Assembly: GCA_001768735.1 (NCBI GenBank)
Contig: MEMB01000007.1
Location: forward strand, 23,612-87,611
Reading direction: 5' to 3'
Length of the DNA stretch: 64,000 nt
Source of the DNA: Alphaproteobacteria bacterium GWF2_58_20
GTDB taxonomy: Bacteria; Pseudomonadota; Alphaproteobacteria; UBA1247
A program made the position numbers and the translations under genes. This document shows positions 9,449 through 51,270 of this stretch, one piece after another (the first letter of the stretch is position 1; each line of letters opens with the position of its first letter). The notes below the pieces were generated by a model. That model was not told the origin of the DNA and did no database searches. It saw nothing but the letters and a program-made list of their open reading frames with translations.

Positions 9449-9455
9449 GGGGACC

Positions 9456-10802: not shown

Positions 10803-10934
10803 AAACAGTCTCCTTGGAAGATGGTCGCAGGTGTTTGTCCTCCCCCTTCATAACAGATGGAGAAAAAACTTTCACCCCCGTTCATATGCATGGATGAGGC
10901 TAAAAAGATCCGAGCGACAAAAAAAGAAGGAGAA

Positions 10935-11264: not shown

Positions 11265-11370
11265 CAAAAAATGCGTCGGGGCTTGCCGAAAGACTCCGGC
11301 GCTGGCAGAATGAAGGGTATCCGCCACCATGGTGTGCGGATGCCCTTTTTGTTTTCACGGGATGGACATC

Positions 11371-11763: not shown

Positions 11764-11778
11764 AGGAGAAGAACCGGC

Positions 11779-30106: not shown

Positions 30107-30121
30107 GGGACAATCTCCTGT

Positions 30122-31522: not shown

Positions 31523-31623
31523 GCAACTCCTCCCATCTGTGATGGAAATCATAGGAGGTTTCCAAGAAAATCACAAGCGATGAAAAACATGGCGGAAATG
31601 ATCACGCAAGAAAAAAGGGAGCC

Positions 31624-35573: not shown

Positions 35574-37271
35574 TTGCGCATGTCCGTTTTTGTTTGCCGC
35601 CGTAGCGGGGGAGTTTTCTGGGGTGTGCTGTTTTTGTCATGCCTTGCCATTCTTTCCTTGTCCGGATGCTCCGGGGTTCATGATCCTGAACTTGGCCTGA
35701 ACCGGGACGCCTATCGCAACATGACCGATCCTGTGCCGGATGCGTTCAAGACATCCCGCAAGGAAGCGCCTCCCATTCCGGATTTGTCCCCAACGATTGC
35801 CCGCCCGGCGATGCCGTTGCTGACGCCAAACCGCACGGTCAGCCTTTCCGTGACAAGCGCATTGTCCCTCAAGGATGTCATGTTTGAGCTTGCCCGCCAG
35901 GCGGAAGTGGATATTGAAATTGACCCGCGGATTGCCGGGGGGGTGGATTTTTCCGCCCACAACCGGCCTTTCCTGGATGTGATTGATCGCCTGTGTGACC
36001 TTGCCGGCCTGCGTTTCCGTATCCGCAACAATGTGGTCCGGGTGGAAATTGACGATCCCTATGTTTTCAATTATGAAGTTCCTTACCTGTCCATCATCCG
36101 CCAGACCCGCAGCAATATTGGTGTTTCCACGGATGTTGTGACGCCTGGCAGCAGCGCGGGGAGCGGGGATACCCGTTCAACGGCAAGCATCAGCGGAGAA
36201 TCGGATTCCAATTTCTTTGGGGAACTGGAAACCGGTCTCAAGGCCCTTCTGGCCAACACCACTCCGGCCGGCCTTTCTGCAACGCGTCCGGCAGACCAGC
36301 CAGCGGTTGTCCTGCACAAGCAGACAGGTATCATTTCGGTTTTCGGAACCCTCAAACAGCATCAGGCCGTGGCGGAATATCTCAAGCCACTGGTGGAAGC
36401 CTCCATGGCGCAGGTGCAGATTGATGCCCGGATCATCGAGGTCAATCTGGATGACCGTTACAAGAGCGGTGTTGACTGGACTTTTGTCATGCAGCAGGGG
36501 ACCATTTATACGCTGGGGTCAACCCTGACCAACTTCAATGACCCGAGTCCGCTCAACAACACATTTCAGGCGACGATTGACGGTTCGGATGTGGATCTGC
36601 TGGTCAACCTGATCCAGAAGTTTGGCACCACGCGCACCCTGTCCAGTCCGCGCGCCACGGTTCTCAACAACCAGTCCGCCATTCTCAAGGTTGCCCGGAA
36701 TTATGTGTATTTTGATGTGCAGGTGGATCGTGAAACCACGACGGATACCACGACCAGCAACAACCTGCCCCTGCTGACCGTCAGCAGTGACATCCGCACC
36801 ATTCCAATTGGTCTTGTCATGGCGGTCCAGCCTTCGGTGGATATGCGCACCAATGAAATTGTCCTCACGGTGCGTCCCACGGTGACAGAACTGGATTCAA
36901 CCGTCTCGGATCCGGCCGTGCAGTATATCAACAGCACGCTTGATCCCAATGCGGTGCGTGTGGAATCCCAGATCCCGGTCGTGCGCGTGCGGGAAATTGA
37001 CAGTGTGCTGCGCCTCCAGTCCGGAGAGGTTGCCGTTCTGGGCGGCCTGATGCAGGACAAGAGTGTCCTGGATGACGAGGGGCTGCCCGGTCTGGGAGAA
37101 ACCCCGGTTCTGGGCGATCTGGTCACCAAGCGTGAAAAGCTGCGGGATACCACGGAAATGGTGGTGTTGCTCAGGGCCCAGGTCCTGAAGAACGCATCTT
37201 CTGGAGTGACCGATGCCGACCGCCACCTTTACAAGACATTTGTCCGCGATCCGCGTCCGTTCAACTTTTAA
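35574..37271 (+). CDS. type IV pilus lipoprotein secretin (MshL/PilN-type)
   Basis: Lipobox LSLSGCSG. Secretin C-domain (VLRLQSGEVAVLGGLMQD ... GLPGLGETPVLGDLV ... TEMVVLLRAQVL). Confidence 0.8.
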   Translation: MRMSVFVCRRSGGVFWGVLFLSCLAILSLSGCSGVHDPELGLNRDAYRNMTDPVPDAFKTSRKEAPPIPDLSPTIARPAMPLLTPNRTVSLSVTSALSLKDVMFELARQAEVDIEIDPRIAGGVDFSAHNRPFLDVIDRLCDLAGLRFRIRNNVVRVEIDDPYVFNYEVPYLSIIRQTRSNIGVSTDVVTPGSSAGSGDTRSTASISGESDSNFFGELETGLKALLANTTPAGLSATRPADQPAVVLHKQTGIISVFGTLKQHQAVAEYLKPLVEASMAQVQIDARIIEVNLDDRYKSGVDWTFVMQQGTIYTLGSTLTNFNDPSPLNNTFQATIDGSDVDLLVNLIQKFGTTRTLSSPRATVLNNQSAILKVARNYVYFDVQVDRETTTDTTTSNNLPLLTVSSDIRTIPIGLVMAVQPSVDMRTNEIVLTVRPTVTELDSTVSDPAVQYINSTLDPNAVRVESQIPVVRVREIDSVLRLQSGEVAVLGGLMQDKSVLDDEGLPGLGETPVLGDLVTKREKLRDTTEMVVLLRAQVLKNASSGVTDADRHLYKTFVRDPRPFNF

Positions 37272-37286: not shown

Positions 37287-38051
37287 ATGCTGCCGACACT
37301 GCGCTATCTCTTCCTGACGGCACGTCGTGACCGGTTGTTTCTGGCCATGATGGCGGCTTTTGGCCTTGTTGCCCTGCTGGGGAGCTTTATTGGCGACCAG
37401 TCCGTGATTGAGGGGCGGGAAGCGACAGCGGCGTTTGTCGCATTTTCCGGGCGCATGGTGCTGGTTTTCGGCATGGTGCTTTTTGTGGCAACCCATATTC
37501 GTCGCGCCTTTGAAAGCCGCGAAATCCTCATGATCCTGTCCCGGCCGGTGTCCCGCCATGGGTTTGTGCTGTCCTGCTGGGCAAGCTTTTCCATCATTGC
37601 CATCCTCCTCCTGGCTGTCTTTGGGGGGCTTCTTTATGTTGTTGCCCATCCGCCAGCGATGGGGCTTGTGTTGTTCATGGCCGGAATGCTGCTGGAAACC
37701 ACCCTGATGATCGGTGTGGCCCTGTTTTTCTCCCTGGGCATGGAAAGCGTGGTTGGGGTTGTGTTCTCCAGCTTTGGTTTTTATATGCTGGCCCGCATGA
37801 TGGGGGTTCTGGTTGCCATCGCCAATTCCGAATTCCGTGGGGTTGAATTGCCCATGGCGCTGGCGCTGGACCAGGTTGCCAACCTGATGTCCTTCATTTT
37901 TCCAAGGCTGGACCAGTTTGGCCAGTCGTCATGGCTGGTGTATGGCCGTGGACTTGACCTGTCTCTTGCGGGCATGGCCCTGCAGGTTGGGCTTTATACT
38001 GCCCTGGTGCTTGCTGCCGCGATTTTTGATTTCCGGCGCAAGCGGTTTTGA
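37287..38051 (+). CDS. ABC-2-type transporter permease-like membrane protein
   Basis: Six predicted TM helices, 254 aa. Immediately downstream of the secretin gene, with a 4-bp overlap to the next gene. Confidence 0.45.
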   Translation: MLPTLRYLFLTARRDRLFLAMMAAFGLVALLGSFIGDQSVIEGREATAAFVAFSGRMVLVFGMVLFVATHIRRAFESREILMILSRPVSRHGFVLSCWASFSIIAILLLAVFGGLLYVVAHPPAMGLVLFMAGMLLETTLMIGVALFFSLGMESVVGVVFSSFGFYMLARMMGVLVAIANSEFRGVELPMALALDQVANLMSFIFPRLDQFGQSSWLVYGRGLDLSLAGMALQVGLYTALVLAAAIFDFRRKRF

Positions 38052-38746
38052 TGGTTTTTCGCATGCGGTCATCGGGGAATGTTGTGTTGGGCTTCCTGCT
38101 GGTGGCCCTGACTGTGGCGCAAGGGGGGCTTGGATACCTGCTGCGCAAGGTTCCGCCCCATTACCACACGTTGTCTGCGCCTCCGGGGCATCAGGCCTTC
38201 GTGGCGCAAACCCTTGGAGATCCACAGTTCGGTTTTCGCATGGCCGGCTTGCGCCTTCAGCATGAGGGAAACCTGGATGGACGGATTTTGCCGTACAAGT
38301 CCATGGACTACAAGAGACTGGCGGACTGGTTTTCCTTGCTGGACAGGATGGATGCCACTTCCAGCGTGACGCCAACCATGGCGGCGTTCCTGTTTGTTTC
38401 ATCACAAACTCCGGAAGACACCCGTTACCTTGTGGATTACCTTGAACGGCATGCCATGCGCGATCCCCAGCACAAATGGCGCTGGCTGGCCCAGGCTGTG
38501 CATATTGCCTGGTATCGTCTTGGGGATCGGGACCGTTCCCTTGGCCTGGCGAAGGAACTGGCCGATCTTCCAGTGTCCGACCTGCCTTACTGGGCGCGCC
38601 AGATGCAGGTGTTTATCCTGATGGATTTGGGGGAAAAGCCGTCCGCGCGGGCCATTCTGGAAAAAATTGCCGAAACAGACCATAACCTGCCGGAAAATGA
38701 ACGGTTGTGGATGCAGCGGTTCATCCAGCGCCATCTTTCAGATTGA
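38048..38746 (+). CDS. membrane-anchored hypothetical protein
   Basis: N-terminal TM helix (VVLGFLLVALTVAQGGLGYLL) and a soluble domain with no motif recognised. Confidence 0.4.
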   Translation: MMVFRMRSSGNVVLGFLLVALTVAQGGLGYLLRKVPPHYHTLSAPPGHQAFVAQTLGDPQFGFRMAGLRLQHEGNLDGRILPYKSMDYKRLADWFSLLDRMDATSSVTPTMAAFLFVSSQTPEDTRYLVDYLERHAMRDPQHKWRWLAQAVHIAWYRLGDRDRSLGLAKELADLPVSDLPYWARQMQVFILMDLGEKPSARAILEKIAETDHNLPENERLWMQRFIQRHLSD

Positions 38747-38750
38747 GGGA

Positions 38751-39854
38751 ATGATGGAAGGGCTGCTCAATCTTGCAAACGGCCTTCAGGTCGCCGGACT
38801 TCTGGAAGGGTTGGTCCTGCTGGCTTTTATCCTGCGGCGCATTTGTGACCGGCGTCTCCTGGTTTTCCCTGTGGCGTATGTTGTTGCGGTTTCGGCGGGG
38901 TTCCTCATGCCGCTGTCGCAGCGTATCGACATGCAGGTGCCGGAAGCCGTCCTGATTGTCCTGAATGCCACCCTGTCGGGGTTCGGGTACCTTTTCATTC
39001 TCCAGCTTCTGGATGGACAGCCGCCGCGTCGCCTGCACCTGCTCGTGCTGATTCCGGCCTTGCTGGTTGTTCCTGGGGCGCTGGTAACTGCGGCCTCAAA
39101 GGGGCAGATGATGTGCTGGGGCGATGTCTGCATCATCCCGGCCGATTTTCTTCGGGTTTATGATGTCCTTGCAGGGGGGATGCTGCTTTTGGCCCTGCTG
39201 CTGGTTGCCGGGCGTCGTCTGGAAGCGCTGGTGGGGCGTCCCATGGGGCGTGAAAAACAGGCCTTGGTTTTGGCCATTGCCATGATGCAGGCCGCCCTGC
39301 TGGGGTTGGGGCTCGTTTTCCTTTCCGGCAGGATCGACCGGGCTGAAGCCGAAGTGGTGGATGCCATCTTGCGCCTGACCTTCCTTTATCTTCTGGCGTC
39401 TTCGGTGTTTCGCGTGTTCCAGTCGGCGTTTGACTTGCCGGAGCTTTCGGGGAACGAAAACCAGGAACATGCGCCGGGCCTGTCGGATGAGGATCTCAAG
39501 GTCATGGATGCCATCAGGGCGCTGATGACCATGGACAAGCTTTATCAGGAACAGGGGTTCAGCCGTGCGGACCTTGCCCGTGAACTCGCCCTTCCCGAAT
39601 ACCAGGTGAGCCGGATCATCAATGCCGGATTTGGGCAGACTTTTTCCGAAATGGTAAACGGGTATCGCCTGGACGAAGCGCGCCAGCTCCTGAAGGAAAC
39701 GGAGCAGCCTGTTGGCAGCATCGCTTTTGATGTCGGGTTTAATAGTCTGGCCTCCTTTAACCGGGTTTTCAAGGTGGGCACAGGCCAAAGCCCCACAGCC
39801 TTCCGGCAGGGCATCAAAATGGAATCGAAAATGGAGACCCCGGGTAAGTCTTGA
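38751..39854 (+). CDS. membrane-embedded AraC-family transcriptional regulator (about 7 TM helices plus C-terminal AraC HTH)
   Basis: Seven hydrophobic helices, then the AraC HTH (FSRADLARELALPEYQVSRIINAGFGQTFSEMVNGYRLDEARQLL ... SIAFDVGFNSLASFNRVFK). Confidence 0.7.
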   Translation: MMEGLLNLANGLQVAGLLEGLVLLAFILRRICDRRLLVFPVAYVVAVSAGFLMPLSQRIDMQVPEAVLIVLNATLSGFGYLFILQLLDGQPPRRLHLLVLIPALLVVPGALVTAASKGQMMCWGDVCIIPADFLRVYDVLAGGMLLLALLLVAGRRLEALVGRPMGREKQALVLAIAMMQAALLGLGLVFLSGRIDRAEAEVVDAILRLTFLYLLASSVFRVFQSAFDLPELSGNENQEHAPGLSDEDLKVMDAIRALMTMDKLYQEQGFSRADLARELALPEYQVSRIINAGFGQTFSEMVNGYRLDEARQLLKETEQPVGSIAFDVGFNSLASFNRVFKVGTGQSPTAFRQGIKMESKMETPGKS

Positions 39855-39966
39855 AAAGCGTTGGTTGCAAGAGATTTTGGGATATCCTCAGGCCGTGGTT
39901 TTCCGGTAGCCTTGCGGGTATGGCGAGGGGTGTCGCGGGAAAGAGCGCAGGGAAGGGAAGAAGGAC

Positions 39967-40755
39967 ATGAATCCGTTGAATTTGGCTTGGGGCGCGGCCT
40001 TTGCCCTTTTAGGTATGGTTTTTGGGAGTTTTTCCAGCCTTCTGTCCTATCGTCTTCCGCGCGATCTGCCGGTGGGCATGACCCGCTCGGCCTGTCCCTC
40101 CTGTCATCATGTCCTTGCCGCCCGCGATCTTGTCCCTTTGCTGGGATATGTTTTCCAGCATGGGCATTGCCGCTGGTGCCAGAAGGCGATTTCGCGCCGC
40201 TATCCCCTGATGGAACTGACCTGTGCGCTTCTTTTTGTCGTGGCATTCATGGCGTTCGGGGCGTCCTTGTCCGGGGTGCTTTTTGCGGGGCTGTCTTTTG
40301 CCCTTCTGGTGGTTGTGGTCAGTGACCTTGAAACCTATATCATTCCGGATACCATGGTGATTCTGGTTGGTGTGCTGGGGATCCTGTGGCGCTGGAAAGT
40401 TGTTCCAGGCTTTGGGGATGCGTTTCTCGGGGCTTTGTTGGGGGGAGGGTTGACCCTTGGGTTGCGTGCCTTGTTCCTGCTGCTGCGCCGCAAGCAGGGG
40501 TTGGGGCTCGGAGATGTGAAATTTATTGCGGTAGCCGGGATCTGGCTGGGATTTGAAGCCCTTCCATGGCTTCTGGTTCTGGGCGGGAGTTTCGGCGTGG
40601 TGTTTGGCATGGCATGGCAGGCGCGCAACAGGCTGTGCAGAAAGAAGCGGACATCCCGTCGCAAGCTGCCATCTTATTTCCCGTTTGGCCCCGCCCTTGC
40701 TTTTGCGCTTTATCTTCTGGTCCTGATCCAGCAACGCGGTTATCCATGGTTTTGA
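39967..40755 (+). CDS. pilD: prepilin peptidase (A24 family, PilD type with N-terminal zinc-binding CxxC pairs)
   Basis: CPSCHHVL ... CRWCQKAIS. Polytopic, with the catalytic Asp region (VVVSDLETYIIPD) and GLGDVKF. Confidence 0.85.
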   Translation: MNPLNLAWGAAFALLGMVFGSFSSLLSYRLPRDLPVGMTRSACPSCHHVLAARDLVPLLGYVFQHGHCRWCQKAISRRYPLMELTCALLFVVAFMAFGASLSGVLFAGLSFALLVVVVSDLETYIIPDTMVILVGVLGILWRWKVVPGFGDAFLGALLGGGLTLGLRALFLLLRRKQGLGLGDVKFIAVAGIWLGFEALPWLLVLGGSFGVVFGMAWQARNRLCRKKRTSRRKLPSYFPFGPALAFALYLLVLIQQRGYPWF

Positions 40756-40988
40756 AATCCTTTTTCCACACCGTGTGGCAAGGTTTTTTTTGAGGGAACT
40801 TTCCAAGGGAAACCGGTGCAGCCTGCATTCCTCATCTTGTAAAATGACGGATTTGGCACGCATTTTCCCAAGACAGCCCCGTTTTTTTGCGATATGATGC
40901 GGCCAGATTAGGTTTTGTGCGCAAGCGTGCGCATGGCGTTTGTGGGTATGCGGGGCCTTTCTCCGCAGAACATTTTGAGGAGAGTAAC

Positions 40989-41699
40989 ATGACGACAAAT
41001 GGCAAGCAGACACAGGCTGGTTTCAGTCTTGTCGAACTGGCAATCGTGCTGATCATCATCGGTCTGATTGTTGGTGGCGTTCTGAAGGGGCAGGACCTTG
41101 TGGAAAGCGCCCGCGTGAATTCCATCCAGACACAGCTGAACGAAGTTCGTGTCGCATCTTCGACCTTCCTGAACAAGTATGATGATCTGCCGGGCGACAT
41201 CAGCGCTGCGGATGCGGTGCTTGTGCAGGCGGGCCTCAGCAGCACGGGTGACGGCAATGGCCGCGTTGGTGGCACGGGCGTCAATCGTCTTGGCTCCACG
41301 GCAACGGAACCCACCTGGTTCTGGCAGCATCTGCGCGCCGCCGGTCTTCTTGGCGGCATTGCCACGGAATCTACGGGCGTTCTTCCGGCGTCTTCCGGCT
41401 TGCAGAGCCGCGTGGGTGGTCTTTACACCATCAATTATGAAACCATCAATGGAATCAGCAGCCACTGGATCCGTCTTGGAACCACAACGGGTGCGGCGCC
41501 GACCGACAACAATGTTGCGGTTCTCTCGCCCAACCAGCTGCGCAGCGTCGACACCAAGGGTGATGATGGCCTGCCGAACACCGGCAAGGTGGGTGGCGCA
41601 GGTTCAGGTACCGCTTGCGCGACAGGCGTGACCTCCACCAGCACCTACCAGACCACCAATCCGGATACGGTTGCCTGCTGGGGTCACTTCCAGCTCTAA
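40989..41699 (+). CDS. type IV pilin (probable major pilin), short leader
   Basis: MTTNGKQTQAG|FSLVELAIVLIIIGLIVGG class-III signal with Glu5. C-terminal Cys pair. Followed by a strong terminator. Confidence 0.8.
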   Translation: MTTNGKQTQAGFSLVELAIVLIIIGLIVGGVLKGQDLVESARVNSIQTQLNEVRVASSTFLNKYDDLPGDISAADAVLVQAGLSSTGDGNGRVGGTGVNRLGSTATEPTWFWQHLRAAGLLGGIATESTGVLPASSGLQSRVGGLYTINYETINGISSHWIRLGTTTGAAPTDNNVAVLSPNQLRSVDTKGDDGLPNTGKVGGAGSGTACATGVTSTSTYQTTNPDTVACWGHFQL

Positions 41700-41732
41700 T
41701 CGTTCTGTTTCCTGAACAACAGGAATGGGAAA

Positions 41733-41768
41733 GGGCCCTGCAAATGCAGGGCCCTTTCTTGTTTTTTT
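41733..41768 (+). terminator. rho-independent terminator after the pilin gene
   Basis: AAGGGCCCTGCAAATGCAGGGCCCTT hairpin, then TCTTGTTTTTTT. Confidence 0.7.
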
Positions 41769-41903
41769 CGGGAATCCTTGCAAGGATAAGGAATCTTCCT
41801 GCCGGATGTTTTGGGTTCCCCCTTTTCAAGGGCAGACATTCAGGGTAGAGTAAAAATGTGATATTGTGCGAAACTTGTGAATGGTTTGTAATGGGGGGAT
41901 GAC

Positions 41904-44300
41904 ATGAAAGAATTTCAAAGGCGCGGGCGTGATGGGATCGTTTTCCTGTTTGCGGCAGGTGTGGTGATTGCTGTGGGGGCGATGGCCCTTCTCGGACGCA
42001 CGGCATTGGACCAGGCACGCCAGGAAACATCATCCCGCATTGTGACTTCCAAGGACATGTTGCGCATTCAGGATGCGATGCGCCTGTTTGTCAAGCGCAA
42101 CCAGCGCCTGCCTTGCCCGGCTGACGGGGCGGAATCCCTTTATTCGGATAATGGCAGTACGGAACGCTGGACGGCGGGCTACCGGAAATGCACTTTTGCC
42201 AGTGGCCATGACATGAGTTATGGTACCTTGCCGTGGCGGACGCTGGGCCTTCAGCCTGAGGATGCGCTCGACCGTTGGGGCCGACGCATTTCCTATCGCG
42301 CCTATGATGGCGATGGGGCTGGCATTGGCAGTTTGACATACGGGGAAGACATTTCCCCGACCTCCATCAAGCGGGGCATGAATTTCCTGGCGTGTGCCAA
42401 GGAAACCCTGGTGAGGGATCCTTCCCAATCCCCCACCTCCTCATTTAATACAACCATGCCGCCCACCAGCCACTGCGCCCAGGCGGCCATGACCGTTTAT
42501 ACAAATGATCTGGACAATCTTGACTTGTCCCTGCCGGCAACGGATCCCAGCTACGATGCGACCGGCTATGGCTGGCTTTACAACGAATTCCAGCGGCAGG
42601 AACTGATTGTTCCGCAGGTGGGGGGGCATGTCATCATCGGGACGGATGACCTGACCAGTGGAACGGAAGCCAATGATTACCGGCCCGCACTCGGCACCGG
42701 CACCGCCTACATGCTGATCTCGCATGGGGAAAACGGTCGTGGGGCCTGGCAGACATCCGGTGGGCAGAACAAGATGCCGGATTCTACGGATGAAAGCGAA
42801 AACGTGAATGCGAACACGGATTATATCGATCCGGGGTTCCGGGCCATCCACACCCTCAATGGAACGCAGGCGTTTGATGATATTGTGTTGACGGTTTCCG
42901 TTGAAAACCTGGCCAAGGAAGCTGGTCTCTGGATCAGCGATACTTATGATCCGGATGAATGGTCGCAGGCCATGCTGGACTATCTGGAAAGTGGTGGTGG
43001 GCCACAATATTTCGAAGACATGGATTTTGTGTATTTCCGAAAATCGGGTACGGCAAAGTCCGACCAGATCTCCTTCAATGAGAGCACCAGTCCGGAGGAG
43101 AACTTTATTGATTTTGGTTCGCCGACCACCGTGGGAACCAGCAATGACGGAATTGGCAGCGAGGTGATCCTGCGCAATTACCAGAGTGGCTGCGTGTGGC
43201 TGGACTTTCCTTTCCGCTGGACCCGGCAAACCATGAGGGCTTACTGGGAATTCCGGGTTTATGGTGGATCGGATTCGGCTGACGGTTATACCTTTGTCAT
43301 GGTGCCGGGAACAACAGTGACAACACCGGATGATTCGCCGTGCGGCAATTCCAAGGAAGGTGCGCTGTTTAGTTATTCGGATTATGTCAATGGCCTCATA
43401 CCGCCGGATTATGATCCCGCTCCTCCGGGCTATTCCTGGCCACACAAGCCGGTTGGTACCGATCTTGGTGCGATTGGTGCCAAGCCGTCAGATCCCCGCT
43501 ACAGTCCGCTTTATGAAGACAAGTTTCCCCAGCGGAAGATGGGGGTGGAGTTTGACTTTTACGCCTATGGCAATATTCGCAATGACCCGGCGAACAACCA
43601 CATCGCCGTGTTCCGGGAAAACTCCAACATCCATGGCAATCGCCTGTGCAGTGTGAATGCGCCTGGTTCGCCGCCGCAATCCTGCACGAATGACTGGACC
43701 TGGCAGGAAATATGGGGCACCAATCCCACCTGCTCTTTCGTCAGCAGTACGCCAGGGCAGCGCGGATGCGATATCGGCAATAATACCACCTGGATGGAAG
43801 ATCGTGATTATTGCAACATCAGTACGGATTTTTGCTGCATGCCGGGCACGGCAGGGAATAGCTGCAGGCACGATCATCCCAGCTGGGATGCCTGCAATTG
43901 CTGCATGGAGGACGATACTGCCTGCATCAATTATTTCAAAAGCCTGCGTCGTCCGCGTGTGACGCCGGACATCAGCGAATATCCCTACCGGGTGCGCATT
44001 GATGCCGACCGCTATTGCAACAGCAATTGCACGGTGTGCGGCGGCAGTGGCGGAGAATATGTCCATTTCAAATTGTGGACGGATTGCTCCACGGCAGCAT
44101 GTGCAGACATCCATACCCCTGCCAGCGCGTCCTTCGACAGTATTCCCGGCGTCAAGAGGCTGGATTATTGTTTCCGCGATCCGGGGATGGATGATGGCAA
44201 CATCAACCTGTTTGACACAGTCAAGGTCGGCTTTACCTACGGGACGGGTGCCAATATCAGCGGCATGCAGCTCAGCGGATTCAAAGTGGGGTCTGAATGA
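41904..44300 (+). CDS. large pilin-like / pilus-associated protein with Cys-rich C-terminal region (adhesin candidate)
   Basis: Hydrophobic pilin-like N-terminus. A shared domain with the next pilin (RLPCPADG ... LPWRTLGL). About 25 Cys in the C-terminal 300 aa. Confidence 0.55.
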   Translation: MKEFQRRGRDGIVFLFAAGVVIAVGAMALLGRTALDQARQETSSRIVTSKDMLRIQDAMRLFVKRNQRLPCPADGAESLYSDNGSTERWTAGYRKCTFASGHDMSYGTLPWRTLGLQPEDALDRWGRRISYRAYDGDGAGIGSLTYGEDISPTSIKRGMNFLACAKETLVRDPSQSPTSSFNTTMPPTSHCAQAAMTVYTNDLDNLDLSLPATDPSYDATGYGWLYNEFQRQELIVPQVGGHVIIGTDDLTSGTEANDYRPALGTGTAYMLISHGENGRGAWQTSGGQNKMPDSTDESENVNANTDYIDPGFRAIHTLNGTQAFDDIVLTVSVENLAKEAGLWISDTYDPDEWSQAMLDYLESGGGPQYFEDMDFVYFRKSGTAKSDQISFNESTSPEENFIDFGSPTTVGTSNDGIGSEVILRNYQSGCVWLDFPFRWTRQTMRAYWEFRVYGGSDSADGYTFVMVPGTTVTTPDDSPCGNSKEGALFSYSDYVNGLIPPDYDPAPPGYSWPHKPVGTDLGAIGAKPSDPRYSPLYEDKFPQRKMGVEFDFYAYGNIRNDPANNHIAVFRENSNIHGNRLCSVNAPGSPPQSCTNDWTWQEIWGTNPTCSFVSSTPGQRGCDIGNNTTWMEDRDYCNISTDFCCMPGTAGNSCRHDHPSWDACNCCMEDDTACINYFKSLRRPRVTPDISEYPYRVRIDADRYCNSNCTVCGGSGGEYVHFKLWTDCSTAACADIHTPASASFDSIPGVKRLDYCFRDPGMDDGNINLFDTVKVGFTYGTGANISGMQLSGFKVGSE

Positions 44301-45184
44301 GGATACGTAAACGCAAGGATGCAGGGTTTTCGCTGGTTGAACTGGCGGTGGTGCTCATTATTGTCGGTATCCTGACCGGTATGGGCATTACCAGCCTTTA
44401 TGCCTATATGGAACGGGAAAGCCGGGCCACCACCTTTGTGCGTCTGGATGCTGTTGAACAGGCCTTGTACCTTTATGCGGCCCGCAACAAGCGCCTGCCC
44501 TGTCCGGCAGATGGATCGCTTGCGGAAACCAATGCCAGTGCGGGGATTGAACAGCGCAGCGGCAATGTCTGCACCTCCGGTCTCCAGTACAGCACGGTTC
44601 CGTGGCGGGATCTGGGTCTTGCGCAAGGCGCCAGCTATGACGGCTGGAACCGCAAACTGACCTACCGGGTGTTTTATGATGCCACGGGAACGCCTGCGGG
44701 CCAGCGCGGGCTTGTGCGGCCGGGCGGAATGGACATGTCGCAGTGTGTTGCCAGTGCGGCCGACGATGGTGGGGCCATCACGGATTGTGCATCTGATGGC
44801 AGTACAGCCCCCATTGAGTTCCTGCGCAACAAGGGGTTGACCATACGCACCAATGTTGCACCGGCCGGTTCGGTCATTCGTTCGTCATCCACACCGGAAT
44901 ATGGTGGGGGGGCGGCTTTTGTCCTTGTCAGTCACGGGAAAAACGGCACTGGGGGGTATATCAAGTCGGGTGCCAATCCGGGACGGTCGGAATCCCCGCC
45001 GCTGAGTTCCCTGTCAGGGTATGTGATGGAGCTTGAAAATCTCGATTTTACAACGGATGACATTTACATTGATAGCCGCATGAGTGATGCACAAAATGCC
45101 GTGCCGGCGAATTTTTTCGATGACATCATCCGTGCCCCCAGCATTCACTGGGCGTCCGACAAAGCCAATTTGGGGCCGCAATAA
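44297..45184 (+). CDS. minor type IV pilin
   Basis: RKRKDAG|FSLVELAVVLIIVGIL prepilin signal. Paralogous to the previous gene (KRLPCPADG, VPWRDLGL). ATGA overlap. Confidence 0.75.
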   Translation: MRIRKRKDAGFSLVELAVVLIIVGILTGMGITSLYAYMERESRATTFVRLDAVEQALYLYAARNKRLPCPADGSLAETNASAGIEQRSGNVCTSGLQYSTVPWRDLGLAQGASYDGWNRKLTYRVFYDATGTPAGQRGLVRPGGMDMSQCVASAADDGGAITDCASDGSTAPIEFLRNKGLTIRTNVAPAGSVIRSSSTPEYGGGAAFVLVSHGKNGTGGYIKSGANPGRSESPPLSSLSGYVMELENLDFTTDDIYIDSRMSDAQNAVPANFFDDIIRAPSIHWASDKANLGPQ

Positions 45185-45513
45185 TGAAATGTCTTCTTGC
45201 CATGGTGCTGACGCTCCTGGTTCTGGAATCTGCCCCGGCCGTGGCCCTGGATGCGGGCATGGTCTGGGATGTGGCGCATCGCTGCTTTCGTCAGAAAGAT
45301 GGCGATGGCTCAAGCTGTGGTCTGACATGGCATGTGGATGTGCGGAACTATAGCGGGGACGAGGTAAAAATCACGCCACCGGAAACCGCCAAGGATATAG
45401 GGGCGCGTCTGGATGCCCAGATGGCAACCGAACAGAAACAGGTTGAAACGTTGCAGAAAAATGAAAATGTGGAGAAGGTCCGGGTATTGTTTACCGACGA
45501 AAAAATGCCATGA
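45184..45513 (+). CDS. small secreted protein
   Basis: Signal peptide LLAMVLTLLVLESAPAVALD. 109 aa. Confidence 0.4.
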   Translation: MKCLLAMVLTLLVLESAPAVALDAGMVWDVAHRCFRQKDGDGSSCGLTWHVDVRNYSGDEVKITPPETAKDIGARLDAQMATEQKQVETLQKNENVEKVRVLFTDEKMP

Positions 45514-45606
45514 GGCGGGATGGGGTTTCGAAGAAAAACAAGAGTGGATTTTTTTACGAATTTGCTTTAGATTTCAAAAGTTGAGCCATGATGGGATTGG
45601 AGACTC

Positions 45607-46971
45607 ATGAGTAGCCTTTTTGATGCCTTGGAAAAGTTGAAAAGAACCGGAAGCCGGGAGGAAACAAATATTTCCTCTCTGGATTATGACCGGCAATCGG
45701 CTGCGTCCATGGCGCTTAACATCACGCCAGAACCCCTCGCGCGCCTGAAATGGCGGCGGCGAATCCTGGTCCTTTTGCTGTTTGTCATTGCCCCCGTGAC
45801 GGTTGCCTATGTGGCGCATGTTTATGATGAAACCCTTCGTCGCCCAGGATCGCCGTCCCTCATGAACCGGATTGTTGCATTTGTCTCCGGAGAAGATGGG
45901 GTAAAGGATTATGTCCGCCAAGGCGTTGATTCGGCCAGAAGTGTCGCTACAGGAGTGGTTGGAAACCTTGACAAGCTGGTGGATCCCTATGGAAACCTGC
46001 CGGTTTCTGATACCTCTGTTCTGGTTCCGAAACCTCCAGCGCCTTCCGCAGCAGATGTTGCCGTGCCGGAGTTTGTTGTCCAGGAAGTTGGCGTCCCTGT
46101 CCAGAAATTGCCCGCGTCTTTCCAGAATGTCACGGCATCCTCCAATGATGGCGCTGCCTCTTCGATGGCGGGACCGTCCCTGAAGCCTCCTGTCCTTCCC
46201 GGCACAGCCAATCTTGACATTGACCGGTTGATTGGGGATCTTGCTCCGGCAGAAGATGGATCCGCTTTCGTGCCCACGATGACCGGGGTGCCTTTGCCGG
46301 ATGCCTATTCTCCCGTTCCGGATCATGTGGAACTGAAGCGCGGAACGGTTCCGGCCATTGGGGGCGAGGATGCTTCCCTTTCCGTTTCCTACCAGAAATC
46401 GATTGCCATGCGCGGTCTTTACGAAAATGCACAGGCGGCACTGGATGCGGGGGACAACCTGCAGGCGATGGATTTGTTCTCCCGGATCCTGGAACGCAAC
46501 CGGGATGATGAAGTGGCGCTCTTTGCGCTTGCGGTTTCGCAGCAAAAAGCGGGCATGCGCAAGGAAGCCATGACCTCTTATGCGCGCCTGCTGTCCTTGG
46601 AACCACAGAACCTTGATGCGCAGGCGAACAGGCTGGTCTTGCTTGGCCAGGAGAATCCCGTTGAAGCCACCGCCCGCCTGGAAATGCTGGTCAAAGGGAA
46701 CCCGGACTTTGTCTCCGGCTGGTCACAGCTTTCCGACCTTTATGCCCAGCAGGGGAATTTTGGGGCCGCCATTGCCGCTCGGCGACAGGTCATGTCCTTG
46801 CGTCCCCAAAGCCTTCCTGACCTTTATAACCTTGCTGTCCTTTATGACCGCAACAATGACCGTGATGCGGCCATATCCGCTTATCGGGCCGTCCTGAGGG
46901 CGGCGGGACGTGGGGGAGACGGATTGCCGCTGACCGAAATCCGCCAGCGTCTTGGCTATTTGGTGCAATAG
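45607..46971 (+). CDS. TPR-repeat pilus biogenesis protein (MshN-like)
   Basis: TM helix (ILVLLLFVIAPVTVAYVAHV) plus C-terminal TPR repeats. Directly abuts the ExeA-like gene. Confidence 0.6.
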   Translation: MSSLFDALEKLKRTGSREETNISSLDYDRQSAASMALNITPEPLARLKWRRRILVLLLFVIAPVTVAYVAHVYDETLRRPGSPSLMNRIVAFVSGEDGVKDYVRQGVDSARSVATGVVGNLDKLVDPYGNLPVSDTSVLVPKPPAPSAADVAVPEFVVQEVGVPVQKLPASFQNVTASSNDGAASSMAGPSLKPPVLPGTANLDIDRLIGDLAPAEDGSAFVPTMTGVPLPDAYSPVPDHVELKRGTVPAIGGEDASLSVSYQKSIAMRGLYENAQAALDAGDNLQAMDLFSRILERNRDDEVALFALAVSQQKAGMRKEAMTSYARLLSLEPQNLDAQANRLVLLGQENPVEATARLEMLVKGNPDFVSGWSQLSDLYAQQGNFGAAIAARRQVMSLRPQSLPDLYNLAVLYDRNNDRDAAISAYRAVLRAAGRGGDGLPLTEIRQRLGYLVQ

Positions 46972-47826
46972 ATGCTTTATCTTGATCACTTCCGCCTGAA
47001 ATCCGAGCCTTTTGGCCTGACCCCCAACCGTGCGCTTTATTATCCTGAAAACCATGCCCAGATCCTTGCTGCGCTGATGTATGCGATTGAGCGCGGAGAA
47101 GGGATCGTGAAGGTTGTCGGTGAGGTGGGAACCGGAAAAACCATGCTCTGCCGCCTGCTGTTGCAGGCTTTGGATGATTTTGCCGAAGTGGCCTACATCA
47201 CGGCGCCGCGCACGGATCCCCTGGCCATTGTCAAGAATGTTTGCAAGGATTTCGGAATCAAGGTTTCAGGGCATCAGGATCCGTTTGACCTCCTGTCTCA
47301 GCACCTCATTGATGTGCGCAAAACCGGGCGCAAATCCATCCTCGTGGTAGATGAATCGCAGGCGCTGGGCGCCCGTGGGCTTGAAGCGGTCCGTCTTCTC
47401 ACCAATTATGAAACGGATGATTCCAAACTTTTGCAGGTTGTCCTGTTTGGCCAGCCGGAACTGGATGACCTCCTGCGCCAGCGCGATTTGCGCCAGCTGG
47501 CCCAGCGCATCACCTTCAGCCTTTATACCCGCGCCTTTGACCGGGATGCCGTTGGCCGCTACATCCACCACCGGGTTTCCCTCTGCACCTATGCGGAATC
47601 GCCGCATTACCTGTTTTCCAAGGTGGCTCTTGACATGATTGCCCGGGAAAGCCGTGGGGTGCCGCGTGTCGTCAATATCCTGGCAGATCGTTCCTTGCTG
47701 GCCGCTTATGCCGAAGGGGCCAAACAGGTGCAGCGTCGCCATGTGCGTGTGGCGGTTCAGGAAGGCATGCTGTGGCCCGAGTCTCCGTCCTTCTGGGCCC
47801 GCATGGTGGAAGCCATCCTGCCCTGA
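46972..47826 (+). CDS. ExeA/GspA-like AAA ATPase (MshM-like)
   Basis: LYLDHFRLKSEPFGLTPN ... VGEVGTGKTMLCRLL is the ExeA family N-terminus with Walker A. Confidence 0.8.
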   Translation: MLYLDHFRLKSEPFGLTPNRALYYPENHAQILAALMYAIERGEGIVKVVGEVGTGKTMLCRLLLQALDDFAEVAYITAPRTDPLAIVKNVCKDFGIKVSGHQDPFDLLSQHLIDVRKTGRKSILVVDESQALGARGLEAVRLLTNYETDDSKLLQVVLFGQPELDDLLRQRDLRQLAQRITFSLYTRAFDRDAVGRYIHHRVSLCTYAESPHYLFSKVALDMIARESRGVPRVVNILADRSLLAAYAEGAKQVQRRHVRVAVQEGMLWPESPSFWARMVEAILP

Positions 47827-47859
47827 CGGGGAATTTCCCCTTGCTCTGGAGGTAAACCC

Positions 47860-48972
47860 GTGTTTGCACTTAATGACATCCTGCGTGAAGCGGTTCGGCA
47901 AAAGGCATCGGATATCCATCTTTCCAGTGGAAATCCGCCGATCCTGAGACTGGATGGCTTGCTTTCACCAATGCCCGGCGTGTTGGCGCGAACAGATGTC
48001 ATGCAGGCGCTCAAGGAAGTGGCGACGACACAACAGCTGGAAGATTTTGAAGGTAAGGGCGAGATTGACTTTTCCTTCGATTTTGACGGCCTGATGCGGT
48101 TCCGCGTGAATGCGTTTGAGACGCTGGAAGGCCCGGCCATGGTCATGCGGCTCATCCCCATGTCTCCGCCGACATTGCAGCAGATTGGTGCTCCGGCTGT
48201 CCTCAAGCAGATGGCGCATTTGCGAAAAGGGCTGGTGCTGGTGACAGGCCCAACGGGGTCGGGAAAATCCACCACGCTGGCCGCGATGATCAACTACATC
48301 AATGATGTCCTGCCCAGCCATATCCTCACGATCGAAGACCCCATAGAATACATTCACAAAAGCCGGCGTGCGCTGATCAACCAGCGGGAAGTGGGCCGGC
48401 ATTCCAGTTCTTTCCATAATGCGCTGCGTGGGGCATTGCGTGAGGATCCCAACGTGATCCTTGTCGGAGAAATGCGGGATCTTGAAACCATTTCGCTGGC
48501 GCTTACGGCTGCGGAAACCGGACATCTTGTGTTTGCCACCCTGCATACATCATCGGCTGCCAAGGCGGTGGATCGCATCATTGACGTTTTCTCGGCCAAT
48601 GAAAAGGCGCTGATGCGTACCATGGTGGCCAGTTCCCTGCAGGCGGTGGTCGCGCAGACACTTCTGCCAAGGGCAGGCGGTGGGCGCGTGGCGGCTTTCG
48701 AGGTGCTGGTTGCCAATCAGGCGGTGCGCAACCTCATTCGTGAAAACAAGATTTTCCAGATGGAAAGCATGATCCAGCTGGGGGCCAAGCATGGCATGCA
48801 GGGCATGAAGGAATCCATTCAGGAGCTGGTATCTTCCGGACAGGTGCGGGTTGAGGATGCCGAGGATCTCCTGCACGAGATAGAAGCTGACAAGAACGCC
48901 GGAGATGACGCCGGGGGCCGTGCGGGCGGATTGCATCAGCATCATCCAATGTCTGGGATGCCGCATCGCTAG
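47860..48972 (+). CDS. pilT: twitching-motility (retraction) ATPase PilT
   Basis: PilT N-terminus (NDILREAVRQKASDIHL), Walker A GPTGSGKSTT, His box and the AIRNLIRE-like motif. Confidence 0.85.
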   Translation: MFALNDILREAVRQKASDIHLSSGNPPILRLDGLLSPMPGVLARTDVMQALKEVATTQQLEDFEGKGEIDFSFDFDGLMRFRVNAFETLEGPAMVMRLIPMSPPTLQQIGAPAVLKQMAHLRKGLVLVTGPTGSGKSTTLAAMINYINDVLPSHILTIEDPIEYIHKSRRALINQREVGRHSSSFHNALRGALREDPNVILVGEMRDLETISLALTAAETGHLVFATLHTSSAAKAVDRIIDVFSANEKALMRTMVASSLQAVVAQTLLPRAGGGRVAAFEVLVANQAVRNLIRENKIFQMESMIQLGAKHGMQGMKESIQELVSSGQVRVEDAEDLLHEIEADKNAGDDAGGRAGGLHQHHPMSGMPHR

Positions 48973-49069
48973 AGCCTTGAGCGTTCATCTTGAATACCCC
49001 TGTTGCCTTGCGGCGGACTCATCCCAAGATCAACAGGAATTGTTCCATCCAAATGTTAAAGGCTTCAGC
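48969..49069. repeat. MITE-like element, short (internally deleted) copy
   Basis: Shares both ends (AGAGCnTTnAnCGTTCATCTTGAATACCCCTGTTGCCTT ... CATCCCAAGATCAACAGGnATTGTTC ... GTTAAA.GCT) with the element at 63595-63761. Confidence 0.6.
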
Positions 49070-49289
49070 GCTTCCGTTTTTCACATTTACGGGATTGACA
49101 GCCTTGCGATCATGCATGTTATGCTGATGGCCATGAACATGCATTCAGCAATATCCCTTGCCGGTTTCGGCATGGCGAAGATCTGGTGGGCCTTCTAACA
49201 GGCTCGCTGCTTTTGGACGTGTGTACGAATGGCTGCGGGAGATAAAAATTCCGCAGTCTTTTTTTATTTAAAATCAAAGGGAGGTCAGG

Positions 49290-50489
49290 ATGATGTCCGG
49301 AAAGAAAGAACAGGTTGAACATGGGTATTTTGGCGCCTACGGGGGGAAATTTGTTCCCGATGCGTTGGCTTCCCTGCTGGAGGGCCTGGGGCAGGTTTTC
49401 ACCGGAGCCATTGCAGAGGACTCCTTTCGGGAGGAACTGCAGGAGCTGCTGAAAGATTATGTCGGACGGCCATCCGCCCTGACCGAATGCCGCAATTTGT
49501 CTGAAGAATGTGGCGGGGGACGCCTTTTCCTGAAAAGGGAAGACCTCAACCATACAGGGGCACATAAAATCAACAATGCCCTTGGCCAGGCATTGTTGGC
49601 AAAACGGATGGGCAAGAAACGTCTGATTGCGGAAACCGGGGCGGGCATGCATGGCACAGCCACCGCAACGGTTGCTGCGCTCATGGGGATGGAATGCGTT
49701 GTGTATATGGGCGCTGTGGATGTGGCCCGGCAGGCGCCCAATGTGGCCCGGATGCGTGTTCTGGGAGCCAGGGTGGTTGCGGTTCATGATGGGCAGGGAA
49801 CCTTGAAGGAAGCGGTGGATGCTGCCTTGCAGGCATTCATTCAGGATCCGGAAGCCTTTTACCTGTTGGGTTCGGCGGTTGGTCCTGCGCCTTATCCAGA
49901 GATTGTCCGGTATTTTCAGAGTGTCATTGGAAGCGAGGCGCGGGCCGAAATCCTGCGACGGGAAGGGCGTCTTCCCGATGAGGTGGTGGCGTGTGTGGGC
50001 GGGGGCAGCAATGCCATTGGGTTGTTTTCCGCCTTCATGGATGATCCGGGGGTTGTCATGACAGGGGTTGAACCTGCCGGGAAAGGGCTCCAGTTTGGGC
50101 TTGGCGCACATGCGGCGACACTTTCAGCGGGTGCGCCCGGCATCATTCATGGTTTCCGGACGTATGTTCTTTCCGATGCGGACGGTAATCCTGCGCCCGT
50201 TCATTCTGTGGCTCCGGGGCTGGATTATCCCGGCGTCGGGCCGGAACATGCGTACCTCAAGGATATTGGGCGGGCGCAGTATGTTTCCGTTACGGATGCC
50301 GAGGCGCTGGCGGCTTTTTCACGCTTGTGCCGGAAGGAAGGGATCATCCCTGCGCTGGAGAGTGCGCATGCGCTGGCATATGCCCTGAAAGTGCTGCCGG
50401 AAATGAAAAAGGACCAGATTCTGCTTGTGAACCTTTCCGGTCGTGGCGACAAGGACCTGGAAACGGTACTGCCCATGCTGGGTCTCTGA
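49290..50489 (+). CDS. trpB: tryptophan synthase beta chain (stand-alone)
   Basis: GYFGAYGGKFVPD, the PLP-lysine motif HTGAHKINN and GGGSNAIG. No trpA adjacent. Confidence 0.85.
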   Translation: MMSGKKEQVEHGYFGAYGGKFVPDALASLLEGLGQVFTGAIAEDSFREELQELLKDYVGRPSALTECRNLSEECGGGRLFLKREDLNHTGAHKINNALGQALLAKRMGKKRLIAETGAGMHGTATATVAALMGMECVVYMGAVDVARQAPNVARMRVLGARVVAVHDGQGTLKEAVDAALQAFIQDPEAFYLLGSAVGPAPYPEIVRYFQSVIGSEARAEILRREGRLPDEVVACVGGGSNAIGLFSAFMDDPGVVMTGVEPAGKGLQFGLGAHAATLSAGAPGIIHGFRTYVLSDADGNPAPVHSVAPGLDYPGVGPEHAYLKDIGRAQYVSVTDAEALAAFSRLCRKEGIIPALESAHALAYALKVLPEMKKDQILLVNLSGRGDKDLETVLPMLGL

Positions 50490-50544
50490 AAAAGAAGGGG
50501 TGGGGCACGACAGGAGAAGATGGCGCGCTGCCCCATCCGCCGTT

Positions 50545-51270
50545 TCACTCCGGCGTTTTTTCCGAGATGACCTTGAGAAAGGCGCGTTCCAGCGTGGGTT
50601 CCCCATGCATGGTGCGCAATTCATGCGGACTGCCAACATAACGGATGCAGCCTTCGTGCAGAACGGCAATGCGGTCGCAGAGTTCTTCCATGTCCGCAAG
50701 AATATGGGAGCTGAAAAAAATGCTGTGGCCGGCATTTCGATAGCTGGTGAGGGCATCCTTGAGACCAATGCGGACCAAGGGATCAAGGCCACTCATGGGT
50801 TCGTCAAGAATGAGGAGAGGCCGTTTGGTCATCAGGGTGCCGATGAGGCCGATTTTCTGTCCCATTCCCTTGGAGAACGTGGTGATCTTGCGGGAAAGGG
50901 CCGTCTCATCCAGTCCCATCTTGTGTGCAAGGGTGATGGCGGCATCACGGTCGAGTGGCAGATGGTAATAGGCAAGGGTCAGCTGCAGGAATTCCCAGCC
51001 CCGCAAGTGGAGGGATGGCAGAAACTGTTCAGGCAGGAAAGCAAGGTTTTCCCGGCTCTTCTGATCTTCTGCGCTGTGGGAAAAGACGGAGATTTTTCCG
51101 GAATCAATGGCGTGGAGACCTGTCAGGGTTTTGATCAGGGTGGTTTTCCCTGCACCATTCAAGCCAACCAGGCCAAAAATTTCTCCGGGCATCACCGCAA
51201 GGTTGACATCATGCAGGATGCGTTTGCGGCCATAACCAGCCACAACATTTTCCATGGACAGGATGCTCAT
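50545..51270 (-). CDS. ABC transporter ATP-binding protein (last gene of the pilus assembly operon)
   Basis: Walker A GLNGAGKTTL, ABC signature LSGGMGQKIG-like (FSKGMGQKIGL) and Walker B LILDEP. ATGA overlap with the upstream PilP-like gene. Confidence 0.8.
   Translation of the reverse strand: MSILSMENVVAGYGRKRILHDVNLAVMPGEIFGLVGLNGAGKTTLIKTLTGLHAIDSGKISVFSHSAEDQKSRENLAFLPEQFLPSLHLRGWEFLQLTLAYYHLPLDRDAAITLAHKMGLDETALSRKITTFSKGMGQKIGLIGTLMTKRPLLILDEPMSGLDPLVRIGLKDALTSYRNAGHSIFFSSHILADMEELCDRIAVLHEGCIRYVGSPHELRTMHGEPTLERAFLKVISEKTPE

Follow-up and report, generated by a model that had tools for sequence, protein, structure and literature searches.

A predicted PilG/H/I-type ABC module, with its genes split between two operons, in the MSH-like pilus locus of an alphaproteobacterium

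The window, a stretch of 64,000 nt from contig MEMB01000007.1 (positions 23,612 to 87,611, forward strand) of Alphaproteobacteria bacterium GWF2_58_20 (assembly GCA_001768735.1), includes a type IV pilus locus which, as judged by its gene content, is of the mannose-sensitive haemagglutinin (MSH)-like class. Three of the genes in this locus encode an ATP-binding cassette (ABC) ATPase, an ABC-2 permease and a membrane-anchored protein resembling tetratricopeptide repeat (TPR) proteins. These three products would probably form one ABC machine of the type specified by pilG, pilH and pilI in Myxococcus xanthus, and serve as a built-in accessory of the MSH-like pilus. The ATPase and permease genes are 12.5 kb apart and on opposite strands (Table 1), and it is with good confidence that they are assigned to a PilGHI-type pilus ABC module in which the products of the split genes are partners.

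The requirement for PilG, PilH and PilI in the formation of Myxococcus pili has been known since 1998, and the trio is often treated as a myxobacterial oddity. In M. xanthus, pilA and the genes for the 'accessory factor' PilG, the ATPase PilH and the permease PilI form one operon (MXAN_5783-5780), and PilHI are annotated as an 'efflux ABC transporter' (PMC3546991). The pilI gene comprises at least 250 codons, and a ΔpilGHI mutant lacks social (S) motility and exopolysaccharide (PMC5544727). In a passage of PMC3724824 that cites Wu 1998, PilGHI are said to be indispensable for pilin to cross the inner membrane. Homologues of PilGHI are discussed only within the Deltaproteobacteria in PMC6060248, and literature searches on MSH-like and alphaproteobacterial pili turned up no account of such an ABC module.

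The permease gene, which is preceded by a ribosome-binding site of the GGAG type, starts 15 nt 3' of the secretin stop codon. In the homologue search, its product was 100% identical to hypothetical protein DCW68_03690 from a Rhodospirillaceae metagenome-assembled genome (MAG). The initial annotation described this product as an ABC-2-type permease with six transmembrane (TM) segments, and similarity to ABC-2 proteins was found by fold (NosY, ABCG proteins and PmtD), by profile (PmtD) and through the ABC2_membrane families matched by its relatives. On its own, the window permease gave no Pfam or NCBIfam match at default thresholds; the top Pfam score, to PF12730, was 16.2 bits against a cutoff of 27, and the curated ABC2_membrane threshold was not reached. 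When 59 members of the permease family were scanned singly, 15 matched ABC2_membrane_2 (PF12679; best E-value 4.5e-7) and 13 matched ABC2_membrane_4 (PF12730; best E-value 1.8e-6), and further members matched ABC2_membrane_3, ABC2_membrane_5 and ABC2_membrane. A profile of the family matched one solved protein only, PmtD (1.5e-5, 27.7 bits).

The AlphaFold2 model of the permease, built from the family alignment, has a pLDDT of 93.4 and a pTM of 0.90, and includes helices at residues 2-14, 17-37, 43-76, 79-85, 90-120, 124-151, 155-182, 189-204, 215-219 and 227-251. Features of a type V exporter are present, namely an N-terminal amphipathic surface helix, six long helices and a short helix (79-85) between TM2 and TM3, and short helices of the re-entrant type are placed between TM5 and TM6. 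In a Foldseek comparison with the PDB, the top match was NosY (TM-score 0.67-0.70, identity 16-19%), followed by ABCG25, ABCG1, ABCG5/8 and PmtD, and almost all of the matches were membrane domains of type V ABC exporters. Together, the Pfam matches of family members, the PmtD profile match, the model and the Foldseek result assign an ABC-2 (type V exporter) fold to the permease. Conservation within the family is highest in the segment FESREI..LSRPVSR, which comprises the 79-85 helix and its surroundings; from its place in this fold, we infer that the helix contacts the ATPase.

A first search returned 139 homologues of the permease. In a profile search of the full library, the number of representative clusters was 435 at E<=1e-30 and rose to 2048 at E<=1e-3. 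Several homologues are named 'multi-copper enzyme maturation permease' by the Joint Genome Institute (JGI). A tblastn search of the PLSDB plasmids with the permease gave no match.

The third component of the module, overlooked in the initial annotation, is a 231-aa anchored TPR-like protein, here called the accessory protein. The ATG of its gene overlaps the stop codon of the permease gene (TGATG). The protein has 29 detectable homologues and belongs to no Pfam family, and its sequence alone gave no useful match in Pfam or NCBIfam. Its AlphaFold2 model (pLDDT 89.5) consists of a long N-terminal helix followed by 10 helices, and Foldseek gave weak, generic TPR-type matches (E 0.01-0.1), which included designed TPRs, YfgM, MamA, PilF and BamD. 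We take the accessory to be a membrane-anchored TPR-like protein.

The ABC ATPase, identified by PF00005 (2e-24), is the last gene of a minus-strand operon in the order PilB/MshE, PilC, 545-aa, 230-aa and 187-aa proteins and ATPase, in which the first two intergenic gaps are of 2 and 10 nt and each of the three remaining junctions is a 4-nt overlap. As originally proposed, it is translationally coupled to the gene in the PilP position: the ATG of the ATPase gene (51270-51268) overlaps the TGA of the 187-aa gene (51269-51267) as ATGA, the minus strand reading ...CCC ATG AGC... at this point. In GenBank, the start of the ATPase (P0121, 236 aa) is set 5 codons downstream, and the coupling is therefore hidden in the public annotation. 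The ATGA start is preferred because an AGGGG sequence lies 10 nt upstream of it, homologues align from residue 2-4 of the resulting protein, and an identical 4-nt overlap with the preceding gene recurs in two related loci, L006 and L007. A hairpin with a T-run is present at 50538-50555, inside the 55-nt gap between the ATPase gene and a TrpB-like gene.

The best NCBIfam neighbours of the ATPase are the DrrA, lantibiotic-protection, RbbA and GldA ATPases, all of which partner ABC-2 permeases, and its nearest solved relatives are ABCA3/4/1, NosF (2e-36) and Rv1218c. On these similarities, the ATPase is assigned to the class serving ABC-2 permeases (DrrA/NosF/ABCA). Among its 120 closest homologues, Walker A is found in 120, the signature (Y/F)SKGMGQK in 119 and the H-loop in 118; the Walker B-Glu motif predominates. 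This retention of catalytic motifs across homologues argues for an active enzyme.

To find clusters in which a comparable trio is linked to pilA, metagenome contigs were scanned for a DNA pattern encoding GILAAIAIPNF, which we take to be from the PilA N-terminus. The comparison set consists of metagenomic clusters in the M. xanthus gene order, not of the M. xanthus proteins themselves. A total of 21 metagenomic loci were found to include, in order, a pilin gene, a gene for an accessory protein (~291-313 aa) with an N-terminal hydrophobic anchor, an ABC ATPase gene and a permease gene (253-271 aa), and in several of these the prepilin peptidase (PilD) gene is next. In one example, L083, the order is sigma54 response regulator, Pilin_PilA, 291-aa protein, ABC_tran, ABC2_membrane_2 and prepilin peptidase, and the permease exceeds the ABC2_membrane_2 threshold (65 bits vs a cutoff of 27.2). 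The cluster is located at L083 5560-9686, and many uncultured bacteria have pilA-linked trios of this kind, often together with pilD (metagenome loci L026-L145). The pilA-linked accessory proteins also belong to no Pfam family, and have a common FGFRN.LAD..WL motif near the N-terminus.

Comparison of these clusters with the window shows its permease and accessory protein to be homologues of their pilA-linked counterparts. Using hhalign, the two permease families were aligned with 98.9% probability (E 2e-17, 238 columns) and the two accessory families with 93.5% probability (E 2.4e-7, 162 columns). The controls were clean, with 0.1-0.2% for reversed alignments and 0.1% for swapped pairs, and against an unrelated TPR family the window accessory reached 1.3% and the PilG-position family 20.4%. 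The hidden Markov model (HMM) of the accessory matches the L137 accessory directly (E 4e-8), and the HMM of the window permease matches the pilA-linked permeases at 27-63 bits. On the strength of the two hhalign results and their controls, the window trio would be homologous to the PilG/H/I-type trio. The pilA-linked ATPases are 36-44% identical to the window ATPase and have the SKGM signature variant in common with it; since this identity does not exceed that to other ABC-2-class nucleotide-binding domains (NBDs), the ATPase alone does not establish the link to PilGHI.

The parallel with M. xanthus PilG/H/I drawn in the initial annotation is thus upheld by the alignments with the pilA-linked clusters. 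It had been worded as an analogous, independently organised arrangement; the organisation does differ, but the relationship indicated by hhalign is one of homology and not mere analogy. Like the window module, the M. xanthus system has three parts (an accessory, an ATPase and a permease of ~250 aa) encoded inside a type IV pilus cluster. However, the M. xanthus genes are contiguous and co-transcribed with pilA of a type IVa pilus (T4aP), whereas those of the window are split and belong to an MSH-like pilus, the permease and accessory genes following the secretin gene and the ATPase gene ending the PilB-PilC-alignment operon. The neighbours of the module are pilA and pilD in the pilA-linked clusters and always the secretin gene in Alphaproteobacteria. 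The proteins also differ in length, as the pilA-linked ATPases are ~300-314 aa (314 aa in L083) compared with 241 aa in the window, where a C-terminal extension of ~60-70 aa is apparently absent, and the pilA-linked accessory proteins are ~291-313 aa compared with 231 aa.

To examine how far the arrangement in the window is conserved, related loci were gathered via homologues of the permease and the ATPase and by scanning one genome per species with a 5-sequence permease alignment, and the open reading frames (ORFs) of each locus were labelled by BLAST against the window proteins. The one-genome-per-species scan gave 17 matches, all in alphaproteobacterial MAGs. Carriers include Rhodospirillales, MAGs labelled 'Rickettsiales', one Micavibrio MAG and the cultured species Limimonas halophila (L001), and a close homologue of the ATPase suggests that Telmatospirillum siberiense is a second cultured carrier. 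In all 24 of the 24 loci containing the permease gene, the order is secretin, permease and accessory, often with overlapping stop and start codons. The ATPase gene directly follows the PilP-position gene in the window and in L001, L004, L006, L007, L008 and L013, and the ATPases of L001 and L004 are 49% and 44% identical, respectively, to that of the window. Both genes are present in about five loci, L001, L004, L007 and L013 among them. In L007, all of the genes are on a single strand in the order secretin, permease, accessory, pilin, MshE, PilC, 576-aa, 214-aa and 150-aa proteins and ATPase. The pilD gene is often found just upstream of the secretin gene in the alphaproteobacterial loci, and a recognisable pilin gene is found <=4 kb downstream of the module in only 8 of 21 of these.

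No second ABC ATPase, and no second permease of this family, was found within the window, and the ATPase and the permease are the only candidate partners for each other in the locus. The separation of the two genes, on opposite strands and 12.5 kb apart, together with the many related contigs that have only one of the two within 10 kb, could be taken to mean that the ATPase and permease are not partners, each pairing with the product of a gene elsewhere and being present in the pilus locus incidentally. This is considered highly improbable. Both positions are conserved across diverse Alphaproteobacteria, and the genes are found together in L001, L004, L007 and L013, with a single strand encoding both in L007. 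Moreover, the NosF match of the ATPase and the NosY match of the permease direct both halves independently to one ABC class, and homologous triads in which accessory, ATPase and permease genes are contiguous adjoin pilA. The split ATPase and permease would therefore be partners, as far as can be judged from sequence. Chance co-location of the two in a pilus locus was also considered and rejected on account of the conserved synteny, as the conservation of both placements across Alphaproteobacteria makes it very unlikely.

The assignment of the pilus to an MSH-like class is based on the MshEN domain (3e-16) of the assembly ATPase, the AAA_22 and TPR genes, and the secretin, for which the top NCBIfam model was TIGR02519 MshL at 197 bits, under the cutoff of 250. 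The Vibrio MSHA locus (mshHIJKLMNEGF-BACDOPQ) and the window have in common an MshL-like secretin, an MshE-type ATPase bearing MshEN, an MshM-like AAA protein and an MshN-like TPR protein. The window cluster differs in also including PilT, and in that the proteins in the MshI/J/K position are without detectable similarity to known families. The canonical MSHA locus is not known to include ABC transporter genes.

The names pilMN, pilO and pilP previously given to the genes preceding the ATPase gene did not find sequence support in Pfam, NCBIfam or the PDB. The 545-aa and 187-aa proteins had no match in any of the three, with only chance matches in the PDB when tried singly and as small profiles, and the 230-aa protein had no significant family match in Pfam or NCBIfam. 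The orthologues of these three proteins in L007, L008 and L013 were equally without similarity to entries of Pfam, NCBIfam or the PDB. The 545-aa protein consists of a cytoplasmic part, a single transmembrane segment near residue 331-349 and a periplasmic part, and orthologues are in the same position in L007, L008 and L013. A conserved C-terminal block of the 187-aa protein is common to its orthologues in L001, L006, L007 and L013. As position and membrane topology fit these names but no sequence match was obtained, the labels are kept as positional ones, and the 545-aa, 230-aa and 187-aa proteins may be highly divergent proteins of the alignment complex or something else.

How the module might act can be considered from the best-matched systems. 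NosY, the best structural match of the permease, and NosF, among the closest solved relatives of the ATPase (2e-36), belong to NosDFY. Like the window module, if the periplasmic placement assumed for the accessory is right, this is an ABC-2 system with a dedicated extracytoplasmic partner. The partner is the beta-helix protein NosD in the one and an anchored TPR-like protein in the other, and NosDFY serves the maturation of nitrous oxide reductase, whereas the context in the window is a pilus and no nos genes are nearby. PmtCD of Staphylococcus, which exports phenol-soluble modulins, takes amphipathic helical peptides from the membrane, and PmtD is both a profile match and a fold match of the permease. 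It is conceivable, by analogy, that this peptide handling parallels the handling of the N-terminal helices of pilins. However, the similarity of PmtD to the permease family is remote (27.7 bits) and weaker than that of the PilI-like permeases (up to 62.7 bits), and PmtCD has neither a TPR accessory nor a link to a pilus. GldA, GldF and GldG of the Bacteroidota are a trio of ABC-2 ATPase, permease and accessory tied to surface motility, with a substrate that is not known. Of the NCBIfam models, GldA gave one of the better matches to the ATPase (3.5e-34), yet the score of 119 bits is far below the model cutoff of 403, and no match of GldF or GldG to the window permease or accessory was seen; the Gld motility machinery is that of the type IX secretion system (T9SS) and gliding.

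The mechanism proposed here is tentative, being possible but short of probable. A dimer of NBDs would dock on a permease dimer via the conserved cytoplasmic helix between TM2 and TM3 (FESREILMILSRPVSR), and ATP binding and hydrolysis would move the permease, this movement being passed to the TPR-like domain of the accessory, which is assumed to be periplasmic. The module would thereby act as an extractor or mechanotransducer at the interface of inner membrane and periplasm, its target being a membrane-anchored component of the pilus, most likely the pilin subunits, in a mode of action nearer to that of NosDFY or PmtCD than to that of a solute pump. By the precedent of the M. xanthus pilG, pilH and pilI mutants, it would be needed for pilus assembly, and with its genes divided between the secretin and alignment-complex operons, it would be produced in step with each half of the pilus machine. 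Handling of pilin is suggested by the M. xanthus literature and by the linkage to pilA, and handling of the secretin by the invariant linkage to the secretin gene in Alphaproteobacteria.

An extractor or mechanotransducer is favoured over solute export because NosFY uses a periplasmic partner, the helper is always present and no substrate-supplying genes are found. However, most of the ABC-2/type V systems characterised so far are exporters, with lipids, polymers or peptides as substrates, and the structural and sequence neighbours of the window proteins include ABCG, ABCA and PmtCD. The permease has invariant charged residues (R56, E137 and R170) within its predicted membrane helices, and the M. 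xanthus PilHI carry an annotation as an efflux transporter. The module could accordingly be read as a true exporter of a small molecule, lipid or lipid-linked glycan needed for pilus function, such as a compound for pilin modification or a matrix or trigger compound, with the pilus linkage reflecting co-regulation. We regard this as unlikely. In the loci examined, neither a glycosyltransferase gene nor one for lipid synthesis or any other supply of substrate was seen beside the module. The conserved anchored TPR-like partner and the tight translational coupling to genes for structural pilus proteins are more in keeping with a component of a machine, and NosY, the closest match by fold, is part of a system that has a periplasmic partner. 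The export of glycan or lipid tied to pilin modification was also considered as a leading idea, and was rejected as no biosynthetic genes accompany the module.

The invariant position of the permease and accessory genes after the secretin gene (24/24 alphaproteobacterial loci) raises the further possibility that the secretin is the client of the module, which would use ATP to act as a pilotin or release factor and so aid the exit of the MshL-like lipoprotein secretin from the inner membrane or its assembly in the outer membrane. Some known secretin pilotins, for example PilF, are TPR lipoproteins. The window secretin has a lipobox, and PilF and BamD are among the weak fold matches of the accessory, but at E-values of about 0.06-0.09 these represent generic TPR similarity. 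In addition, the homologous pilA-linked module is located between pilA and pilD, away from the secretin gene, and the ExeA/MshM-like ATPase and TPR protein already encoded in the locus could serve the secretin. The defect ascribed to the M. xanthus mutants in the passage of PMC3724824 is, furthermore, related to pilin. A role confined to the secretin is therefore rather improbable, and action on a membrane-anchored pilus component, most likely pilin, is preferred.

Several points weigh against the interpretation of the trio as a PilG/H/I-type machine that acts on the pilus. The Pfam scores of the window permease itself are sub-threshold, and R56, E137 and R170 could belong to a genuine translocation path, in which case a transporter would be more plausible than a mechanotransducer. 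The orientation of the TPR-like domain towards the periplasm is an assumption, the sequence being ambiguous in this respect. In the loci of MAGs labelled 'Rickettsiales' and in L002 and L003, the ATPase gene is not within 10 kb of the permease gene, its operon being farther away or on a separate contig. The identity of the window ATPase to the PilH-like ATPases is no higher than to other ABC-2-class NBDs, and the equivalence of the metagenomic clusters to M. xanthus PilGHI is drawn from gene order. Partner interaction, ATP hydrolysis, substrate and the effect on piliation are inferred.

The presence of a homologous trio in another pilus class, in Alphaproteobacteria, would not amount to a new principle but offers a useful lever on the old question of PilGHI function. 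The NosY-like fold predicted for the permease, together with the TPR-like helper, leads to a concrete and testable model, with independent lineages available for testing, and two sizeable families outside Pfam, those of the permease (435 clusters at E<=1e-30) and of the accessory, are defined. In a wider and more doubtful proposal, the PilG/H/I-type trio would be an old and widespread second energy input of type IV pili, operating as a NosDFY-like ABC mechanotransducer. If so, ATP hydrolysis in the cytoplasm would drive a TPR-like helper, assumed to be periplasmic, from which the assembly complex receives membrane-anchored pilus parts (pilins or the lipoprotein secretin), and the textbook parts list of the type IV pilus would miss a recurrent component, given that the trio occurs in two very different pilus classes and phyla.

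Table 1. Position and supporting evidence of genes in the pilus locus of the window.
Feature	Position	Strand	Evidence
MshL-like lipoprotein secretin	35574-37271	+	PF00263 3e-27; lipobox LSLSGC in translation; directly 5' of permease gene
Predicted ABC-2 (type V) transmembrane subunit, PilI-like, 254 aa	37287-38051	+	family profile, AlphaFold2, Foldseek, hhalign
Predicted accessory protein, PilG-like, 231 aa	38051-38746	+	N-terminal membrane helix and TPR-like alpha-solenoid
AraC-type membrane-embedded regulator	38667/38748-39854	+	HTH_18 1.5e-20; likely start MMEGLL
Prepilin peptidase	39967-40755	+	A24_N_bact 1.4e-26, Peptidase_A24 3e-14
Major pilin candidate	40887-41699	+	N_methyl 1.8e-5; probable start is internal Met before ...QAG/FSLVELAIV
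798-aa protein and second pilin-like protein (295 aa)	41904-45184	+	
MshN-like TPR protein, MshM/ExeA-like AAA_22 ATPase and PilT retraction ATPase	45607-48972	+	Pfam
TrpB-like pyridoxal phosphate (PLP) enzyme	49290-50489	+	PF00291 4e-44
ABC ATPase, PilH-like, 241 aa	50545-51270	-	PF00005 ABC_tran 2e-24
PilP-position secreted protein, 187 aa	51267-51830	-	signal peptide in translation
PilO-position bitopic protein, 230 aa	51827-52519	-	single N-terminal transmembrane segment
PilM-PilN-position protein, 545 aa	52516-54153	-	topology
PilC/MshG platform protein	54164-55372	-	PF00482 T2SSF 4e-48
PilB/MshE assembly ATPase with MshEN domain	55375-57255	-	PF00437 9e-125, PF05157 MshEN 3e-16

Other genes of the pilus locus include that for the AraC-family regulator, which has an N-terminal domain of ~250 aa with about six or seven membrane helices. 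Its gene comes after that of the accessory in loci of the Rhodospirillales type (L001-L005, L009, L010 and L015), but not in the 'Rickettsiales'-type loci, and the product may be a membrane-sensing pilus regulator. The 798-aa protein has a hydrophobic helix at its N-terminus and a long C-terminal region rich in Cys. It has no match in Pfam and lacks the canonical G/F...E5 prepilin motif. The adjacent 295-aa pilin-like protein, to which it is 36% identical over 137 residues, does have this motif. The 798-aa protein may be a giant minor pilin or a tip adhesin. An ORF of 109 aa lies between the second pilin-like gene and the TPR gene on the plus strand. The TrpB-like gene, located between the PilT and ATPase genes and converging on the latter, interrupts the pilus cluster and is not at an equivalent position in the other loci.

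Two genes that diverge from the secretin gene lie immediately upstream of it, within 31624-35246 on the minus strand, and encode a DotL/IcmO-like coupling ATPase (830 aa; NF041447 TrbC_conju 4e-111, sub-cutoff) and a DotM/IcmP-like protein (377 aa; PF23127 DotM_C 2e-43). As this pairing with the pilus locus was not seen in L001 or L004, the two are probably unrelated to the pilus, and no further Dot/Icm genes were recognised in the scanned parts of the window. Two predicted secreted proteins are encoded between gyrB and the DotL-like gene (29093-31552, minus strand), one of 337 aa with no family match and one of 476 aa with putative immunoglobulin-like (He_PIG) repeats. Further from the pilus genes, several ORFs without a family match (8627-15491) are near genes on the minus strand for a caspase-domain protein (Peptidase_C14 1.7e-13) and a bacterial SH3-domain protein, at 5206-6156 and 7290-8630.

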